Origin: a virus
Strand: one strand, 5' to 3'
IMG/VR virus record: IMGVR_UViG_3300045988_014290
DNA length: 6,596 bases
Numbering within the stretch: the first letter of the stretch is position 1; each line of letters begins with the position of its first letter. The notes beneath the pieces were generated by a model. The model saw only the letters and a list, made by a program, of their open reading frames with translations. It was not told where the DNA came from and made no database searches. The position numbers were made by a program, and so were the translations under genes. Below are positions 1 to 6,596 of this stretch, in pieces.

Positions 1-84
1 AGGGCGTCCGTCAAAATCCTGCCTTTGTGCAAAACGGAGAAAATGTTGCAAAAACAGGCCAAATAGGCGATATCGTATCCCCAT
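1..84. repeat. Left terminal inverted repeat (84 bp). Contains related sub-motifs TTTGTGCAAAACGG (24-37) and TGTTGCAAAAACAGG (45-59).
   Basis: Positions 1-84 are the reverse complement of 6513-6596 with 2 mismatches (pos 56 and 59); aligned by hand. Confidence 0.95.
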
Positions 85-95
85 TCGCGGATTTG

Positions 96-110
96 TGTTG
101 CAAAATCAGG
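96..110 (+). repeat. Subterminal direct copy (14/15) of the TIR-internal motif TGTTGCAAAA[A/T]CAGG.
   Basis: tgttgcaaaatcagg at 96-110 versus tgttgcaaaaacagg at 45-59. A partial inverted echo, cctgattttctgtga, lies at 6499-6513 just inside the right TIR. Confidence 0.6.
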
Positions 111-275
111 TGTTTTTGGGTGTTTCTCGATCCACTTACCGTGGCATGCCGTTCCCGTAACTGAACCGGGAACTCACCTTGGCCCACCATCAATTGCACA
201 CTCATATTACACCCGGCTTTCCCGCCCGTCAACCGCTTTGGCTGATTTGTAACTCACCTGTAACATTCCCGTATT

Positions 276-299
276 TTTGTTACACCGTTTGTTACACCG
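276..299. repeat. Tandem direct repeat, 2 x TTTGTTACACCG.
   Basis: Perfect 12-mer duplicated at 276-287 and 288-299. A nearby AACTCACCT motif also repeats at ~171 and ~251. Confidence 0.8.
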
Positions 300-397
300 C
301 AGCGAGTGATTCTAAATGAGGGGCACGCAGGGGCCTTTTGTTGCACGGCAAACGGCAACGCGCCCCTCACCCCGCCGCACCCCGCGCGGCACATAAG

Positions 398-436
398 GAA
401 AGAGGGCCATTCTTAGCGGAAGAATGGCCCCCTTTC
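398..436. terminator. GC-rich hairpin A1. Core GGGCCATTCTT-agcgg-AAGAATGGCCC at 404-430 is an 11-bp stem that extends with one mismatch to 398-436. REP-like or factor-independent terminator-like.
   Basis: Perfect inverted repeat read directly; no clean U-tract on either strand. Confidence 0.5.
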
Positions 437-451
437 GATTCCCCAAGACCG

Positions 452-468
452 CAAGGGCTACGCCCTTG
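452..468. repeat. Hairpin B1, CAAGGGC-tac-GCCCTTG.
   Basis: 7-bp perfect stem; sequence family shared with hairpin B2 at 735-752. Confidence 0.5.
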
Positions 469-734
469 ACCTGCCATTGCCCGCCTCTGCAAGGCTGATG
501 CTGCACGCGCTGCGCAAAGGAGTGCGTGCAGTTTCTTATTGCCGCTTTCGATTTGGCTTGCTCCTTGTGGCCGCTGCCGCTCTGCGGTGGGGTTTCGGAA
601 GAAATTTTTAACAGCAGCTCGTACCAGCACCGCAGCAGCGGCTGAGCGGAAAGAGAAGCACACCAGATCGTTCAGAAGAAAAAGTCAAACATACGGTTGC
701 CAAAAGGGTAATTTAATATGAGCAGTTCGGGGGT

Positions 735-752
735 CAAGGGGCTTGCCCCTTG
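735..752. repeat. Hairpin B2, CAAGGGG-cttg-CCCCTTG.
   Basis: 7-bp perfect stem; same family as B1. Confidence 0.5.
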
Positions 753-768
753 CGCTCTCTTGGGGTTT

Positions 769-807
769 CAAAGGGGCCATTCTCTACGGTAGAGAATGGC
801 CCCTTTG
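769..807 (-). terminator. Hairpin A2, CAAAGGGGCCATTCTCT-acggt-AGAGAATGGCCCCTTTG: a 17-bp perfect stem. Probable terminator of the minus-strand hsp20 gene, whose stop codon is at 859-861.
   Basis: Perfect 17-bp inverted repeat 52 nt beyond the hsp20 stop. It shares the GGGCCATTCT core with hairpin A1. The U-tract is poor, as is common in high-GC Actinobacteria-like DNA. Confidence 0.5.
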
Positions 808-858
808 GTCGCACCGCCGTCAGGCGGCAAATGTCGCGCCGCCCTCAGGCGGCAGATC

Positions 859-1299
859 TCACTCGATCGCCAGTCTCCGGCTGCCGGAGACCTCAACGTC
901 CTTCTTCGGCATCGTCAGGCTCAGCACGCCGTCGTTGTAGCTGGCCTTGATGCCCTCGGCCTTGACGCCGGAGATATCGAAGCTCCTCGCGTAGCTGCCG
1001 TAGCTGCGCTCGCAGCGGACGTAGCTCTTGTCCTTCTCCTCGTGCTCGTTCCTGCGCTCGGCCTTGATGGTCAGGTTGTCGCCGTCGATGTCGATGGCAA
1101 TGTCCTCCTTCTTCATGCCGGGCAGATCGGCCTCGAGCAGGTAATGGTCGCCCTTGTCCTGAATGTCGGTCTTGAACGTGCCGACGTCGCCGAGGAAGTC
1201 GCGGTTGCCGAAGAACGCGCGCTCCAGCGCCTCCATGTCGCGGAACGGGTCATAGGTGGTCATGTGGTTATTGTTGCGGTAAGGTCTCAGTTCAAACAT
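859..1299 (-). CDS. hsp20: Small heat-shock protein, Hsp20/alpha-crystallin family (146 aa).
   Basis: The translation contains a typical alpha-crystallin domain (GDHYLLEADLPGMKKEDIAIDIDGDNLTIKAERR..., GVLSLTMPKK) and a C-terminal I-x-I/V-type motif (LAIE). A GGAGG Shine-Dalgarno lies 8 nt before the ATG on the minus strand. Third codon positions are very GC-rich, unlike the rest of the window. Confidence 0.93.
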   Translation of the reverse strand: MFELRPYRNNNHMTTYDPFRDMEALERAFFGNRDFLGDVGTFKTDIQDKGDHYLLEADLPGMKKEDIAIDIDGDNLTIKAERRNEHEEKDKSYVRCERSYGSYARSFDISGVKAEGIKASYNDGVLSLTMPKKDVEVSGSRRLAIE

Positions 1300-1427
1300 A
1301 ATGAATACCTCCGGAAATTCGAGATTTGGAAAGCCTCGGGAGCTTGCCTTCCTTTGCTTTTCTTGACTCAGAGTCTACCCCGGAATTGTGTCCAAAGATA
1401 CGCATTTGTGTGAACGGACTATGAATT

Positions 1428-1454
1428 TTAGCACTCTCACTCTAAGAATGCTAA
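1428..1454. promoter_or_regulatory. CIRCE-like inverted repeat TTAGCACTC-N9-GAATGCTAA, one mismatch to the HrcA operator consensus TTAGCACTC-N9-GAGTGCTAA. It lies ~130 nt upstream of the hsp20 start.
   Basis: Read directly from the sequence. The 9-bp arms have the canonical 9-nt spacer and sit in the divergent region between hsp20 (-) and Rep (+). Confidence 0.6.
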
Positions 1455-1506
1455 AATCGTCGGATTTTGTTGCATTTGACGGGCAGCCTGCCCCAAAACC
1501 GCCCAT

Positions 1507-1595
1507 GTCTACCCGATGTCTACCCGCCGAAACGCCTGGGGCGCAAGGGCTTGCGGGTTTTCCAAGAGGGCCGCCGTCTACCCTTCCGTCTACCC
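1507..1595 (+). repeat. Iteron array: four direct copies of GTCTACCC (1507-1514, 1518-1525, 1576-1583, 1588-1595) as two pairs. They flank a small GC hairpin (cgcaa-gggc-ttgcg, ~1540-1553) followed by a gggtttt run.
   Basis: Exact 8-mers counted by hand. The first pair forms an 11-bp tandem ATGTCTACCCG x2 and the second pair is CCGTCTACCC-tt-CCGTCTACCC. Confidence 0.7.
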
Positions 1596-1661
1596 AATTT
1601 TTCGCGCCGATTCTTGAAATGCCTGCCATTGCTGCGAAAATTTTTGAAATTTCCGAAAATA

Positions 1662-1684
1662 TATGGGGGTACGATATCCCCATA
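1662..1684. promoter_or_regulatory. Hairpin TATGGGG-gtacgatat-CCCCATA immediately upstream of the Rep SD. It contains GGGGGTACGATATC, a 13/14 match to the GGGGATACGATATC motif at the inner TIR boundaries.
   Basis: Compared with 6515-6528 (same orientation) and the RC of 69-82. Confidence 0.55.
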
Positions 1685-1700
1685 CAAAGAAGGTGATTTC

Positions 1701-2714
1701 TTGTCATGCTATCATCCGCTTAAAGCCTTTGTCTTAGGTGAAAAAGACGGCAAACGGTTGCTCAAGGTGACGTGTTATGAGGTAGACCATCTTGAACGTT
1801 CTGGTGAAGGTTTTGCTTGTTGTACGCATCCTGCTTATGGTCGTCCTGGTGATGTTACCGAGTTTATCGAGATTCCCTGCGGAAAGTGTTCCGGCTGTCG
1901 TCTCCAGCGTTCGCGTGAATGGGCTAACCGATGTATGCTGGAGCTTGAATATCACAAGTCCAGTTATTTTGTAACGCTTACTTATGATGATGCTCATGTT
2001 CCGATTCATTACTATTCCGACCCCGAGACTGGCGAGGCCCTGCCGAGTATGTCTCTTGTGAAGCGTGATTTTCAGCTTTTCATGAAGCGTCTCCGTAAGA
2101 AGTTTGGCGAAGGTATTCGTTTCTTTGCTTCTGGTGAGTATGGTTCAGTGTCTTTTCGTCCGCACTATCATGCTATCATTTTTGGACTTGAGCTTAACGA
2201 CCTTGTTTTTTACAAGAAGTCTTTTCAAGGCTTCACTTACTATAATTCGCCTTCTCTTAAAGAAGTTTGGCCGTATGGCTATGCTGTTGTAGCTCCTGTG
2301 ACTTGGGAGACCTGCGCTTATACTGCTCGTTATGTTATGAAGAAGCTCACTGGCCCTGAAGCTGAGTTCTACGAGAATTTCAACATTGTTCCTGAGTTTT
2401 CGCTTATGTCTCGCAAGCCCGGCATTGCCCGGCAGTATTATGAAGACCATCCTGACCTATATGAACATGAGTTCATCAACATTTCGACTGAGAAAGGAGG
2501 AAGGAAGTTTCGACCTCCGAAGTATTATGATAAGTTATTTGATGTCGATTGTCCGGAAGAATCTGCCAAGCTTAAGGCTGTCCGTCAGAAGATGGCAGCT
2601 GAAGCTCAGAAAGCAAAACTACAGAAAACCACACTTAGTTATTTAGACCAGCTTGCTGTTGAAGAACGCAACCAGCTGGCCCGAATAAAATCATTGAAAA
2701 GGAGTTGTATCTAA
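1701..2714 (+). CDS. Rolling-circle replication initiation protein (gokushovirus VP4 / phiX174 A-like HUH endonuclease), 337 aa from a TTG start.
   Basis: Motifs are present: FVTLTYDD (motif I), PHYHAIIFG (HUH), and YTARYVMKK (catalytic Tyr pair with Lys). The N-terminus SCYHPLKAF...PCGKCSGCR matches the conserved gokushovirus Rep N-terminus. The first in-frame ATG lies well inside the conserved region, and the tracked start at 1467 is also TTG. The TTG at 1701 is preferred because AAAGAAGGTGA sits 4-5 nt upstream and the conserved N-terminus begins there. Confidence 0.88.
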   Translation: MSCYHPLKAFVLGEKDGKRLLKVTCYEVDHLERSGEGFACCTHPAYGRPGDVTEFIEIPCGKCSGCRLQRSREWANRCMLELEYHKSSYFVTLTYDDAHVPIHYYSDPETGEALPSMSLVKRDFQLFMKRLRKKFGEGIRFFASGEYGSVSFRPHYHAIIFGLELNDLVFYKKSFQGFTYYNSPSLKEVWPYGYAVVAPVTWETCAYTARYVMKKLTGPEAEFYENFNIVPEFSLMSRKPGIARQYYEDHPDLYEHEFINISTEKGGRKFRPPKYYDKLFDVDCPEESAKLKAVRQKMAAEAQKAKLQKTTLSYLDQLAVEERNQLARIKSLKRSCI

Positions 2715-2827
2715 TGCGTAAGAAAATGCGTCCCAAGAAAGACAAGAAGGTCTTTCGCCGTACTGCTGCGAAGTCCAAGAAGATTAATATCAATCCGACT
2801 GTTTTCCGTGGAGGTATCCGGCTGTGA
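2714..2827 (+). CDS. Small highly basic DNA-binding protein (37 aa, MRKKMRPKKDKKVFRRTAAKSKKININPTVFRGGIRL), the gokushovirus ORF8 / phiX174 J-like packaging protein.
   Basis: Hand translation. 15 of its 37 residues are K or R. The ATG overlaps the Rep stop (TAATG), and an AAAAGGAG SD lies 9 nt upstream. It occupies the position of the J-like protein in gokushoviruses. Confidence 0.65.
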   Translation: MRKKMRPKKDKKVFRRTAAKSKKININPTVFRGGIRL

Positions 2828-2913
2828 AGTGTCCGTTTGATTATCCCGATTACGATTGTCCTTATGAGGACGACCCAGATTTAACATGTGAAGATTGTGA
2901 GGTTTTGAAATGA
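2824..2913 (+). CDS. Tiny acidic Cys-rich ORF (29 aa from GTG: KCPFDYPDYDCPYEDDPDLTCEDCEVLK); hypothetical.
   Basis: A GTG start overlaps the upstream stop (GTGA), with GGAGG 9 nt upstream. Its stop overlaps the next ATG (ATGA). The four Cys are arranged C-x8-C...C-x2-C. It is too short to be listed in the ORF track. Confidence 0.3.
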   Translation: MKCPFDYPDYDCPYEDDPDLTCEDCEVLK

Positions 2914-3161
2914 AATACGGTGTTTATTCTATCCGTGATGCTCGGACGGGTTTTCTCCCGCCTACGGTAGATCAGAACGATTCTTCCGCTATGCGGAATT
3001 TCGCTCATGCCTGTATGCAGAAGGAAAGCCTTTTGTTTTCCCACATTGAGGACTATGCCCTCTGTAAGATAGGTGAGTTTGATTCTTCTAAAGGTGTGAT
3101 CACGCCTCAGCCTGTCGATGTTATTTTGGATGGTTCTTCCATTCAAGGAAAGGATTATTGA
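2910..3161 (+). CDS. Hypothetical 83-aa protein in the position of gokushovirus VP5 (small non-structural protein).
   Basis: The ORF has GAGG 7 nt upstream of its ATG and is chained by overlaps to the neighbouring genes. Its codon usage matches the capsid genes. It has no recognisable catalytic motif. Confidence 0.55.
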   Translation: MKYGVYSIRDARTGFLPPTVDQNDSSAMRNFAHACMQKESLLFSHIEDYALCKIGEFDSSKGVITPQPVDVILDGSSIQGKDY

Positions 3162-3163
3162 CC

Positions 3164-3664
3164 ATGTATGATGAAAAGCTTGGATTCTCTACTCAGTATC
3201 GTCCGCGAACTCGCTTCATTTCAAATGGAGGTCAGCGCGAAAGGATTCTCTATCAGCCTAAATTTGATGAGAATGGAGTTATGGATCTCGTTGAATCTGG
3301 CAAAGAAGACCTTTACGATTTCATTCAATCCCACGCCGAAGCCGTTGACATCCACGTGATTTTGGCTCGATTTCAGAATGGCGACGTTGACGCGCTTTCG
3401 CGTGTCCAAGGCGCTTATGGTGATTTCACCAATATGCCAACGTCTTATGCTGAACTTCTGAACAGGGTTAATGAAGGTCAGAGCTTTTTCAATTCTCTGC
3501 CTGTGGATATCCGTGCAAAGTTTAACCACAACTTTGCGGAGTTCATGGCTGGCATGGACAAGCCTGATTTCCTTGACAAGCTCGGAATCAAGCCCGAGCG
3601 AGAGCCTGACCCGTCCCAGGAGGAAAAACCGGCTGTTGAGCCGAAAAAGGAGGTTACGGAATGA
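3164..3664 (+). CDS. Internal scaffolding protein, gokushovirus VP3-like (166 aa from ATG 3164; alternative TTG at 3158).
   Basis: Its size and position, immediately upstream of VP1 with an ATGA overlap, fit VP3. The C-terminal tail is acidic and Pro/Glu-rich (PEREPDPSQEEKPAVEPKKEVTE). An AAGGAAAGGA run precedes the ATG. Confidence 0.7.
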   Translation: MYDEKLGFSTQYRPRTRFISNGGQRERILYQPKFDENGVMDLVESGKEDLYDFIQSHAEAVDIHVILARFQNGDVDALSRVQGAYGDFTNMPTSYAELLNRVNEGQSFFNSLPVDIRAKFNHNFAEFMAGMDKPDFLDKLGIKPEREPDPSQEEKPAVEPKKEVTE

Positions 3665-5358
3665 ATCGTAATGTTGAATCTCATTTTGCACTTAATCCCA
3701 CAAACATTGATATCCGGCGCTCGACGTTTGACCGCTCGCATTCGCTTAAAACTTCGTTTAACGTTGGTGACATTGTACCTTTTTTCGTTGACGAAGTACT
3801 ACCGGGAGATACGTTCAACGTGGACACATCCAAGGTTGTGCGCCTGCAGACGCTGCTTACTCCGGTCATGGACAACATTTACCTTGATACGTATTTCTTC
3901 TTCGTACCGAACCGTCTTACGTGGTCTCATTGGAAGCAGTTCAATGGTGAGAATACGGAATCTGCGTGGATTCCTCAGACGGAGTATGAAATTCCTCAGG
4001 TTACTGCTCCTGCTGATAGCGGATGGTCTGTTGGAACTATTGCCGATTATCTCGGTGTCCCTACTGGCGTTCCTAATCTTTCCGTTAGTGCTCTTCCCTT
4101 CCGAGCTTATGCCCTGGTGATGAATGAGTGGTTTCGTGATGAAAACCTATCTGACCCGCTCGTTGTTCCCGTCGATGATGCTACTGTAGCTGGTGTTAAT
4201 ACTGGTACGTTCGTGACTGATGTTGCGAAAGGCGGTCTTCCCTATAAGGCTGCTAAGTATCATGACTATTTCACAAGCTGTCTTCCGTCTCCGCAGAAAG
4301 GCCCGGATGTTTTGATTCCTTCGGCTACGTCCGGTGAATATCCTGTTGTTACTCGTGAACAGCCTCATGATCCCGGTGGATATGTTTTGACTGGTGTTTC
4401 TAATATTTCTTTTGCTTCTGGAGACCGACCTGTTAATATCTATGATTCTCTTGCTTTTAAGCCTGTTGTTGCTGGTTCTAATTATGCTGGTATTACTGGT
4501 TTCAGTGGTGGTGCTGATAAGCCCGGTTTCGATCCTGTTAACCTTTATGCTGTTTCTTCCGGTGGTCTTGGTGCTTCTATCAATCAGCTTCGTATGGCGT
4601 TCCAGATTCAGAAGCTCTATGAGAAAGACGCTCGTGGTGGTTCCCGCTACATCGAGATTCTTAAGTCTCATTTCGGCGTGACTTCTCCGGATGCCCGTCT
4701 TCAGCGTCCCGAATATCTCGGTGGTAACCGTGTCCCCATTAATATTAATCAGGTTGTCCAGCAGTCGGCCACGGCTTCCGGTGAGACTGCACAAGGTACT
4801 GTTACTGGTATGTCTGTCACTACGGATACCCATTCTGATTTCACGAAGTCTTTCACGGAGCATGGTTTTGTCATCGGCGTTATGGTCGCTCGCTACGATC
4901 ATACTTATCAGCAGGGTCTTGAACGTTTCTGGTCTCGTAAGGATCGCTTTGATTACTATTGGCCTGTGTTCGCCAATATTGGCGAACAGGCTGTGAAGAA
5001 CAAGGAGATTTTTGCCCAAGGCCCTGGCGTTAAGGATACCGCTGGTGCTGTCATTGATGACCAGGTCTTTGGTTATCAGGAAGCGTGGGCTGATTACCGT
5101 TATAAGCCGTCCCGTGTAACTGGTGAGATGCGTTCTCTGTATGCGCAGTCTCTTGATGTTTGGCATCTTGCCGACGATTATACTGCGCTTCCTATTCTTT
5201 CGGATTCTTGGATTCGTGAGGATAAGGCTAACGTTGATCGTGTGCTTGCAGTTACTTCCGCTGTCAGTAATCAGTTGTTTGCCGATATCTATATCAAGAA
5301 CCGGACTACCCGGCCTATGCCTATGTATTCTATCCCCGGTCTTATTGATCATCACTGA
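3661..5358 (+). CDS. Major capsid protein VP1 (F-like), Gokushovirinae type, 565 aa.
   Basis: The N-terminus MNRNVESHFALNPTNIDIRRSTFDRSHSLKTSFNVGDIVPFFVDEVLPGDTFNVD is the conserved gokushovirus VP1 start, and the length is typical. A perfect AAGGAGG SD lies 7 nt upstream. The ATG overlaps the VP3 stop. Confidence 0.95.
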   Translation: MNRNVESHFALNPTNIDIRRSTFDRSHSLKTSFNVGDIVPFFVDEVLPGDTFNVDTSKVVRLQTLLTPVMDNIYLDTYFFFVPNRLTWSHWKQFNGENTESAWIPQTEYEIPQVTAPADSGWSVGTIADYLGVPTGVPNLSVSALPFRAYALVMNEWFRDENLSDPLVVPVDDATVAGVNTGTFVTDVAKGGLPYKAAKYHDYFTSCLPSPQKGPDVLIPSATSGEYPVVTREQPHDPGGYVLTGVSNISFASGDRPVNIYDSLAFKPVVAGSNYAGITGFSGGADKPGFDPVNLYAVSSGGLGASINQLRMAFQIQKLYEKDARGGSRYIEILKSHFGVTSPDARLQRPEYLGGNRVPININQVVQQSATASGETAQGTVTGMSVTTDTHSDFTKSFTEHGFVIGVMVARYDHTYQQGLERFWSRKDRFDYYWPVFANIGEQAVKNKEIFAQGPGVKDTAGAVIDDQVFGYQEAWADYRYKPSRVTGEMRSLYAQSLDVWHLADDYTALPILSDSWIREDKANVDRVLAVTSAVSNQLFADIYIKNRTTRPMPMYSIPGLIDHH

Positions 5359-5369
5359 GAGGTGATTTT

Positions 5370-6161
5370 ATGACTACTGGTAAGGATGCTGCCCAGGTTC
5401 AGAGTGTTCCTGCTGTTGGAAATTTGGATTCTGCTCTTTCTCGTATTACTCGGACTGCTTCGGAAAACACCGCTAAAAGCGCTCAGATGGCTTCTGAGCA
5501 ACGCGACTGGCAGGAAAGGCAAAATGCCCTGGCTATGCAATTCAACGCTCAGGAGGCCGCTAAAAGCCGTTCTTGGCAGGAATACATGTCCAATACTGCG
5601 CATCAGCGTGAAATTCGCGACCTTAAGGCTGCTGGTCTTAATCCGGTACTTAGTGCTATGGGAGGTAACGGCGCTGCCGTTACCTCCGGTGCTACTGCTT
5701 CCGGCGTGACCTCTGCTGGAGCTAAAGGCGAGGTTGATACTTCTGCTAATGCTGCTTTGGTTCAGATTCTTGGCTCTGTCCTTTCGGCACAGACTCAGCT
5801 TCAGACTGCTAATGTTAATGCCAGGACTCAAGAGGCCGTCGCCGATAAGTACACCGCGATGGAGAAGCTCGTTGCTCAGATCGGTGCCGATGCTTCAAAG
5901 TATTCTGCAAATGCTCATTATGCTCTTGGTAAGTATCAGACTGATAAAGGTTTTGAGAATCAGGTGTTTCTTGAGCAGAACTATCCTTCGAACTATGTTC
6001 AAGCTGTTAATTCTATTCTCAAGGCTCTTGGTCTTGATGTTACTGGTGGTTCTACCTCCGGTGAAGGTTCTGTTTCTGCTGAACAGTATGCTAAGCTCAT
6101 GGAAAAGTATAATGCTGCTCTTCTTGGTTCAGGTCCAAAACGTTCTGGCCATCAGAGGTAA
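5370..6161 (+). CDS. Minor capsid / DNA pilot protein VP2 (H-like), 263 aa.
   Basis: Its position directly after VP1 fits VP2. It carries the conserved NTAHQREIRDLKAAGLNP segment typical of gokushovirus VP2, and Gly/Ala/Ser/Thr-rich low-complexity linkers. GAGAGGTGA precedes the ATG. Confidence 0.85.
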   Translation: MTTGKDAAQVQSVPAVGNLDSALSRITRTASENTAKSAQMASEQRDWQERQNALAMQFNAQEAAKSRSWQEYMSNTAHQREIRDLKAAGLNPVLSAMGGNGAAVTSGATASGVTSAGAKGEVDTSANAALVQILGSVLSAQTQLQTANVNARTQEAVADKYTAMEKLVAQIGADASKYSANAHYALGKYQTDKGFENQVFLEQNYPSNYVQAVNSILKALGLDVTGGSTSGEGSVSAEQYAKLMEKYNAALLGSGPKRSGHQR

Positions 6162-6163
6162 AG

Positions 6164-6205
6164 AAAATAGAAAGCGTCGAGGCTTTGCCTCGGCGTTTCT
6201 ATTTT
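6164..6205 (+). terminator. Rho-independent terminator after VP2.
   Basis: A ~19-20-bp stem (AAAATAGAAAGCGTCGAGGC-ttt-GCCTCGGCGTTTCTATTTT; GC core gcgtcgaggc/gcctcggcg with two G-U wobbles) is followed by and includes TTTCTATTTT. It starts 3 nt after the VP2 stop. Confidence 0.75.
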
Positions 6206-6243
6206 GTAACCAAGCGTGAGCGCGGTTAGCGAATAGATATGCA

Positions 6244-6263
6244 CCAGCGAGCGCCAGCGAGCG
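6244..6263. repeat. Tandem direct repeat, 2 x CCAGCGAGCG.
   Basis: Exact 10-mer duplicated at 6244-6253 and 6254-6263. Confidence 0.8.
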
Positions 6264-6267
6264 AACA

Positions 6268-6300
6268 CAGCCCCATTACCTTCTTGATGTAATGGGGCTG
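6268..6300. repeat. Hairpin CAGCCCCATTAC-cttcttgat-GTAATGGGGCTG (12-bp perfect stem).
   Basis: Read directly. No adjacent U-tract, so it is a structural or binding element rather than a classic terminator. Confidence 0.55.
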
Positions 6301-6338
6301 AGTGACACCACGATAAGCAAAATGCTCTCTTTAGGTTA

Positions 6339-6366
6339 TTGACAAGCTATGAATATATGATATATT
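6339..6366 (+). promoter_or_regulatory. Sigma70-like promoter: TTGACA (6339-6344), a 16-nt spacer, then TGaTATATT as an extended -10 (6358-6366). A 15-bp perfect palindrome AATATATGATATATT (6352-6366) overlaps the -10 and is a candidate operator.
   Basis: Consensus -35, a 5/6 -10 with TGn, and an AT-rich upstream region. It sits ~30 nt upstream of the SD and ATG of the small ORF. Confidence 0.55.
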
Positions 6367-6396
6367 AATGAATATAATAAACTGTAAGGTGATTAA

Positions 6397-6513
6397 ATGA
6401 AAAATGATAAAGATAAAATGCTTGATGATTTTTGTTTACAGATGCTTTTGCTTGTAGGAGCTGGTGTTGCTCTAATTTTTATTGTTTGTTCTTTCCTTCC
6501 TGATTTTCTGTGA
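6397..6513 (+). CDS. 38-aa single-pass membrane peptide (MKNDKDKMLDDFCLQMLLLVGAGVALIFIVCSFLPDFL). Candidate small lysis, toxin or membrane peptide.
   Basis: An AAGGTGA SD lies 4-5 nt before the ATG and a strong promoter lies upstream. The charged N-terminus is followed by a ~21-residue hydrophobic segment. The ORF sits in the lowest-GC part of the window and its stop abuts the right TIR. Confidence 0.45.
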   Translation: MKNDKDKMLDDFCLQMLLLVGAGVALIFIVCSFLPDFL

Positions 6514-6596
6514 TGGGGATACGATATCGCCTATTTGACCCGTTTTTGCAACATTTTCTCCGTTTTGCACAAAGGCAGGATTTTGACGGACGCCCT
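6513..6596. repeat. Right terminal inverted repeat (84 bp), partner of 1-84.
   Basis: RC of 6513-6596 matches 1-84 at 82/84 positions. The stop codon of the 38-aa ORF (6511-6513) overlaps its first base. Confidence 0.95.

Follow-up and report, generated by a model that had tools for sequence, protein, structure and literature searches.

CIRCE Operator of a Host hsp20 Gene

The palindrome detected at positions 1428-1454 very probably serves the bacterium's own hsp20 as its CIRCE operator, and it lies beside a phage Rep gene merely through phage integration. The window, that is the whole stretch of 6,596 nt analyzed here (IMG/VR record IMGVR_UViG_3300045988_014290), is composed of Oscillibacter chromosome (1-1662 and 6532-6596) and of a gokushovirus-like microvirus prophage (about 1663-6531). 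The putative HrcA-type control of hsp20 is well supported and of an ordinary kind, because the orthologous genes keep a perfect CIRCE at the same place, with spacers and upstream DNA that are unrelated.

On the + strand, the palindrome reads TTAGCACTC TCACTCTAA GAATGCTAA, with the two arms spaced by nine nucleotides (N9). As described in the initial annotation, this is a one-mismatch match: 17/18 arm bases agree with the CIRCE consensus TTAGCACTC-N9-GAGTGCTAA, as quoted in PMC3806222, and the sole mismatch is an A for G at position 1448. In the hsp20 sense (- strand), the putative HrcA operator reads TTAGCATTC-N9-GAGTGCTAA and is located 128 nt upstream of the hsp20 ATG. The possibility of equally good matches arising by chance had been raised as a potential objection. 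When up to three mismatches were allowed, 1428-1454 was the sole CIRCE match in the window, and such a match appeared in 0/200 dinucleotide-preserving shuffles. Also, across some 190 kb of related host loci, matches with three mismatches or fewer were limited to the orthologous sites upstream of hsp20, exactly one CIRCE being present per host locus of about 20 kb, always before hsp20. No CIRCE was found in these loci upstream of the neighboring htpG (HSP90) gene.

The two flanking genes named from the start were confirmed by Pfam, namely hsp20 (PF00011) on one side and the phage Rep on the other, which is a microvirus Rep (PF23343). The host gene hsp20 (859-1299, - strand) encodes a 146-aa small heat-shock protein of the alpha-crystallin type (PF00011, E = 6e-23). 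Its Shine-Dalgarno sequence, GGAGG (1308-1312, - strand), is positioned 8 nt before the ATG and is conserved in the orthologs. A perfect hairpin with a 19-bp stem (769-807), found just 3' of the stop codon, is a possible terminator, lacking a T-run on the hsp20 strand. Two related perfect hairpins are in fact present downstream of hsp20, at 398-436 and 769-807 (GGGCCATTCT...AGAATGGCCCC). The stretch 399-601, between the hairpins, is rearranged or only about 81% identical across strains, and a Pfam search of the ORFs located between the two hairpins gave no matches.

Candidate Promoters and Leader of hsp20

A consensus scan placed a sigma-A-like candidate promoter of hsp20 within the CIRCE (P1, 1425-1454, - strand). 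It consists of a -35 TTAGCA (1454-1449), a suboptimal spacer of 18 nt and an extended -10 TGcTAAAAT (1433-1425); the -35 is inside one CIRCE arm, and the other arm followed by AAT constitutes the extended -10. The -10 of P1 was unchanged in 34/35 related loci, the exception (L055) having TATAAT. A second promoter-like element (P2, 1385-1414, - strand; TTCACA, 18 nt, CACAAT) is predicted as an alternative or tandem hsp20 promoter. Its hexamers and spacing are largely kept across species (TTCACA-18-CA(C/T)AAT), with weaker versions in L059 and L062 and a partly variable spacer. P2 could be the true hsp20 promoter, which would place the CIRCE upstream of its -35. We infer the role of P1 and P2 as hsp20 promoters from the sequence, and either of the two may be the one that fires.

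Because the operator coincides with a sigma-A-type promoter that faces hsp20, an HrcA dimer bound to the CIRCE would block RNA polymerase at normal temperature. Upon heat shock, HrcA would lose its activity and hsp20 would be derepressed. In the standard model, unfolded proteins titrate GroEL away, which renders HrcA inactive. We infer that HrcA would bind the hsp20 operator and that hsp20 would be induced by heat in this manner.

In the leader of hsp20 (1300-1345, - strand), a conserved UYCC located about 25 nt before the GGAGG could pair with it in the style of an RNA thermometer. RNAalifold gave just -1.35 kcal/mol for this leader. A conserved RNA structure or thermometer is not claimed here, as the UYCC...GGAG elements were nearly invariant and showed no compensatory change, one G-U/G-C wobble being the sole change in the pairing.

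Conservation of the Operator Across Strains and Species

The hsp20 orthologs of six further Oscillibacter/Oscillospiraceae lineages, whose proteins are 63-99% identical, were all preceded by a perfect CIRCE (18/18), at a distance of 116-130 nt from the gene. Oscillibacter sp. MSJ-31, O. valericigenes An907 and several Oscillospiraceae MAGs are among these lineages. These orthologs occupy three unrelated neighborhoods (pyrophosphatase/GidA, RecJ/RelA and a tRNA-like region), and both the operator spacers and the DNA further upstream are unrelated to one another. When seven species-level sequences were compared, variable columns amounted to 1/18 in the arms, 8/9 in the spacer and 18/20 further upstream (Fisher p = 3.5e-5), the sole variable arm column being due to the window's own allele. 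This cross-species footprint, together with the overlap between the operator and the candidate promoter, supports the initial proposal that hsp20 is probably under HrcA-type control. At the level of the genus, the invariance of the arms argues that a cognate binding protein exists.

At a finer scale, a perfect CIRCE was found at the orthologous position in 26/35 related loci, with variable spacers. Within the species, most strains have a perfect CIRCE, and variation other than the window's arm allele is mostly located in the spacer. Two further variants were observed: L007 (9845-9872) has perfect arms separated by a 10-nt spacer (N10), and L055 carries GAGTGCTAT, the A-to-T change that turns its -10 into TATAAT. 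For HrcA binding, these two variants could serve as controls supplied by nature.

The window's own arm allele is a C-to-T change in the hsp20 sense, and it may weaken HrcA binding. One could therefore propose that the operator is real and the allele partly disabled, the change in the arm that overlaps the -35 loosening HrcA repression and making hsp20 more constitutive in this lineage. All the other species retain 18/18 arm bases, and the allele can be considered a stable polymorphism because it recurs in nine loci (3 phage-free and 6 lysogens), two observations in line with this proposal. Against it, this same distribution reveals no association of the mismatch allele with lysogeny, and natural functional CIRCE sites often contain one or two mismatches. 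We regard a partly disabled operator as unlikely.

HrcA in the Host Lineage

The evidence for HrcA itself covers the family level (Oscillospiraceae). A B. subtilis HrcA query retrieved matches from Bacillaceae only. A consensus probe of the HrcA N-terminal region retrieved mostly unnamed fragments and one match in an Oscillospiraceae MAG (GCA_017513385.1), in which the hrcA fragment, corresponding to the N-terminal domain, is preceded by a perfect CIRCE 21 nt before the start codon. Moreover, detection of the HrcA protein has been reported for Faecalibacterium duncaniae (PMC13020158), and a taxonomy look-up placed Faecalibacterium and Oscillibacter in the same NCBI family. A literature search pairing HrcA with Oscillibacter, Oscillospiraceae or Ruminococcaceae returned nothing useful.

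Host Identity and Microvirus Prophage

The host is Oscillibacter (Oscillospiraceae, Clostridia). Its Hsp20 protein shares 99% identity with that of Oscillibacter sp. MSJ-31, 91% with that of O. valericigenes An907 and 84-86% with those of Oscillospiraceae MAGs, and an identical protein is encoded on many phage-free gut-metagenome contigs as well as in an NCBI 'Clostridium sp.' MAG. The phage-free locus L001 is colinear with window positions 1-1681 at 99.9% identity; window positions 6513-6596 then continue from the same 19-nt core in L001 (core at 9619-9637), which constitutes an empty attB. The G+C content is 57-63% around hsp20 vs 42-49% in the phage portion. A search for tRNA and tmRNA found none in the window. 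An Rfam search at a permissive threshold returned only a sub-threshold CyaR match at 1655-1741, regarded as a chance match (27.7 bits for a gathering score of 47).

The prophage (1682-6512, + strand; PF23343, PF20577, PF09675, PF02305) has a full microvirus gene set, colinear with that of a free genome. On the + strand were found, in this order, Rep/VP4 (from a TTG at 1701 to 2714; PF23343; ribosome-binding site AAGGTG), a small basic protein (2714-2827), VP5 (2910-3161), the VP3 scaffold (3164-3664) and the VP1 capsid (3661-5358), all three assigned with Pfam, VP2 (5370-6161), identified by the way related records are annotated, and ORF38 (6397-6513), which is small and hydrophobic. A strong phage terminator made of a 12-bp stem and a T-run (6172-6207, + strand) is situated after VP2. 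In megablast, window positions 1663-6528 aligned to the entire 4900-nt Microviridae record MG945853.1 (88.9%), and the complete relatives, of 4.8-5.0 kb, matched only this part of the window. Two 'complete' microvirus records, MG945853.1 and OP549876.1, both begin exactly at the base corresponding to window position 1663, at the att core, perhaps because prophages were the source of the assemblies or because the contigs broke at the att palindrome.

The prophage is bordered by a 19-nt direct repeat formed by the attL core ATGGGGGTACGATATCCCC (1663-1681, + strand), with host DNA on its left and phage DNA on its right, and the attR core ATGGGGATACGATATCGCC (6513-6531, + strand). The core can be written ATGGGG[G/A]TACGATATC[C/G]CC, with the crossover located within TACGATATC. 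We scanned IMG/VR with the phage-side att and rep ribosome-binding site sequence, and obtained 33 loci, of which 11 were free genomes and 22 integrated copies. In the 11 free genomes, attP contains ...GTGATGGGGATACGATATCCCCATACAAAG... and ...GTGATGGGGATACGATATCCCCAT..., and forms a perfect 9-3-9 palindrome, ATGGGGATA-CGA-TATCCCCAT. Each host genome has at least three copies of the core, located where a leader common to SLH-domain genes begins, and lysogens were seen at three different core copies. This core presumably does not resemble dif, and no paper on this att site was found in the literature.

A gokushovirus-like microvirus of about 4.85 kb recombined via the 19-nt core (1663-1681/6513-6531), a multi-copy host site of which one copy happens to be just 208 nt away from the operator of hsp20. 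The CIRCE is found near the phage Rep gene because this ssDNA phage inserted 208 bases away. The 'divergent region' between hsp20 and Rep, initially taken as one unit, is in fact a host-prophage junction with the attL core at 1663, and no co-evolved unit.

Integration also swaps promoters between the phage and the host. The phage's own promoter, its only strong one (6339-6366, + strand; TTGACA, 16 nt, TATATT; 11/12, with TG), is conserved in the free phage genomes, where it is followed by the small hydrophobic ORF (ORF38), attP and rep. These free phages thus have a promoter of their own upstream of rep. In the prophage, this promoter and ORF38 read out through attR into a host SLH gene and are cut off from rep.

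The locus that hosts the prophage has its own organization. The left end of the window (1-84, - strand), which is the reverse complement of 6513-6596 with two mismatches, holds a third att-type core (66-84, inverted) and the start of the shared SLH-gene leader. This 84-nt terminal inverted repeat is the inner end of inverted repeats of about 945 nt, which correspond to the leader and the 5' part of two outward-facing SLH genes. Across assemblies, the hsp20 segment between these repeats, that is the whole window in lysogens, was observed in both orientations with respect to flanks of about 9 kb (for example L006 vs L007, and L002 vs L001). The segment looks like an invertible S-layer locus of the phase-variation type, which we take to be reminiscent of Campylobacter fetus sap. 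A motif resembling TTGYGCAAAA / TGTTGCAAAA was also noticed at 22-52, 96-105, 1468-1477 and 6543-6575, both within the leader that the SLH genes share and close to the operator of hsp20.

Repeats in the SLH-Gene Block

The octamer GTCTACCC occurs five times in the window, at 1373, 1507, 1518, 1576 and 1588, for 0.14 copies expected. The array mentioned in the initial annotation does exist, and its interpretation as iterons of Rep was ruled out: the repeats belong to host DNA, being present in phage-free hosts, and are missing from the 11 free phage genomes, none of which has a copy within 260 nt upstream of rep. Two pairs (1507/1518 and 1576/1588), with a periodicity of 11-12 nt, are contained in a host block of about 170 nt (1494-1662, + strand), and a single copy is found outside at 1373-1380. 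This block is repeated upstream of several SLH-domain genes and recurs in host loci with 92-98% identity; with its GTCTACCC repeats, it is present in phage-free loci and is kept in O. valericigenes An907. In all the 22 integrated copies of the phage, the left flank is this same block, and 1-4 GTCTACCC were counted in 21/22, the exception (L041) having only 31 nt of flank.

Given their pairing with a periodicity of 11-12 nt, the GTCTACCC repeats are probably bound by a host transcription factor that regulates the SLH genes. No convincing sigma-70 promoter for these genes was located in the shared leader. On the + strand, a promoter-like site at 1614-1641 turned out to be allele-specific.

Operator and Rep: Shared Control or Chance Neighbors

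The initial annotation had further suggested that the region could function as a shared control region, in which HrcA bound to the CIRCE would also gate Rep, with GTCTACCC serving as Rep iterons, the whole constituting a temperature-responsive phage or plasmid-like switch. Such a proposal finds some basis in the palindrome itself, which in the window's allele also reads TTAGCA-18-TGcTAAAAT on the + strand, 246 nt from rep, as well as in the separation of the rep-to-VP2 block from the promoter at 6339-6366, no strong promoter having been seen within this block in the prophage. However, the CIRCE and the repeats are host DNA: in phage-free loci, both the CIRCE and the GTCTACCC repeats accompany an empty attB, and no CIRCE was detected upstream of rep in the 11 free phage genomes. 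The integrated copies argue in the same direction. Among the 15/22 with enough flank to judge, 10 are beside hsp20 and its CIRCE, and 5 are at two other copies of the block, both CIRCE-free, one beside a polysaccharide-deacetylase gene and the other beside a 129-aa/OAD-beta gene. Even next to hsp20, the mirror -10 facing Rep is spoiled (TAAAAG, the key final T being lost) in 7/15 hsp20-adjacent lysogens, and also in several phage-free strains. Finally, Rep matches PF23343, the microvirus/inovirus rolling-circle initiator family. We take this Rep to be a rolling-circle initiator as a mechanistic class, and initiators of the microvirus Rep type are not known to use iterons. Nothing indicates a selected coupling of HrcA and Rep, and we consider a shared control region very improbable.

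A narrower version of this idea is restricted to hsp20-adjacent lysogens in which the mirror promoter is intact, as it is on the + strand of the window's allele (1428-1457, TTAGCA-18-TAAAAT). Since no strong promoter lies within the rep-to-VP2 block, Rep expression in lysogens must rely on read-through from the host or on weak sites, and the separation of this block from the phage promoter leaves a small residual chance that host transcription reaches rep. In such lysogens, host transcription entering from the left, including that from the HrcA-gated + strand face of the palindrome, would then drive the prophage, with heat or proteotoxic stress as the switch. We give this scenario a very low probability. 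If it were true, it would describe a microvirus prophage switched on by heat without any phage-encoded repressor. As for hsp20 and its operator being phage cargo, an auxiliary gene in a single viral genome enlarged to about 6.5 kb, the terminal repeats of the window and the adjacency of hsp20 and rep might evoke it, but the repeats are inverted and not direct, the G+C content differs between the two portions, the complete relatives match only 1663-6528, and hsp20 exists with the same flanks without any phage; the empty sites and the free genomes refute it. The retained interpretation is thus a CIRCE operator belonging to the host's hsp20 and a phage that integrated next to it.

Because the apparent control region is a host-prophage junction, annotators should not take host operators and repeats for phage replication signals. 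Of more interest than the operator itself is what surrounds it, where an integrase-less microvirus uses a multi-copy host site in an apparently invertible SLH-gene locus.

Comparison with Known Systems

The operator has the same 9-N9-9 repeat (TTAGCACTC/GAGTGCTAA) as the CIRCE/HrcA class I operators of Bacillota, which precede dnaK and groESL in Bacillus subtilis and Clostridium. As in class I, it is situated in the promoter/leader of a chaperone gene, with conserved arms and a free spacer. Unlike in class I, the controlled gene would be a monocistronic small-hsp gene and not dnaK or groE, and one arm contains a mismatch. The B. subtilis CIRCE is located downstream of the -10, whereas the hsp20 site overlaps both promoter hexamers.

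The repeats can be compared with the iterons of theta plasmids that depend on a Rep, such as pSC101, F and R6K. The likeness, short direct repeats clustered near a Rep gene, is positional only. Unlike these iterons, the GTCTACCC repeats are chromosomal, located upstream of several SLH-type genes and independent of the phage, and the Rep in question is a rolling-circle initiator.

A precedent for the operator is the hsp16 gene of Lactobacillus acidophilus NCFM, where the extended -10 promoter has a CIRCE beside it, read as HrcA control (PMC3179173). The hsp20 operator similarly adjoins an extended -10 promoter of a small-hsp gene. It differs in that the host belongs to the Clostridia (Oscillospiraceae), and in that HrcA control is proposed from a cross-species footprint rather than from expression. 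By our data, one more small-hsp gene, from a gut Oscillibacter lineage, would join the HrcA/CIRCE regulon, in an arrangement conserved across Oscillospiraceae. CIRCE before small-hsp genes was already known from L. acidophilus hsp16. In itself, the finding matters little.

The prophage can be compared with microvirus proviruses that use host recombinases. Its core is not dif-like and recurs at least three times per genome, at the start of the SLH-gene leader, and its attP is a perfect palindrome, features that distinguish it from the gokushoviruses of Enterobacteria, which use dif/XerCD (PMC7062461), and from the proviruses of Bacteroidetes (PMC3091885). Like them, it is a microvirus that lacks an integrase, measures about 4.9 kb, is bordered by short direct repeats and is found in both free and integrated forms.
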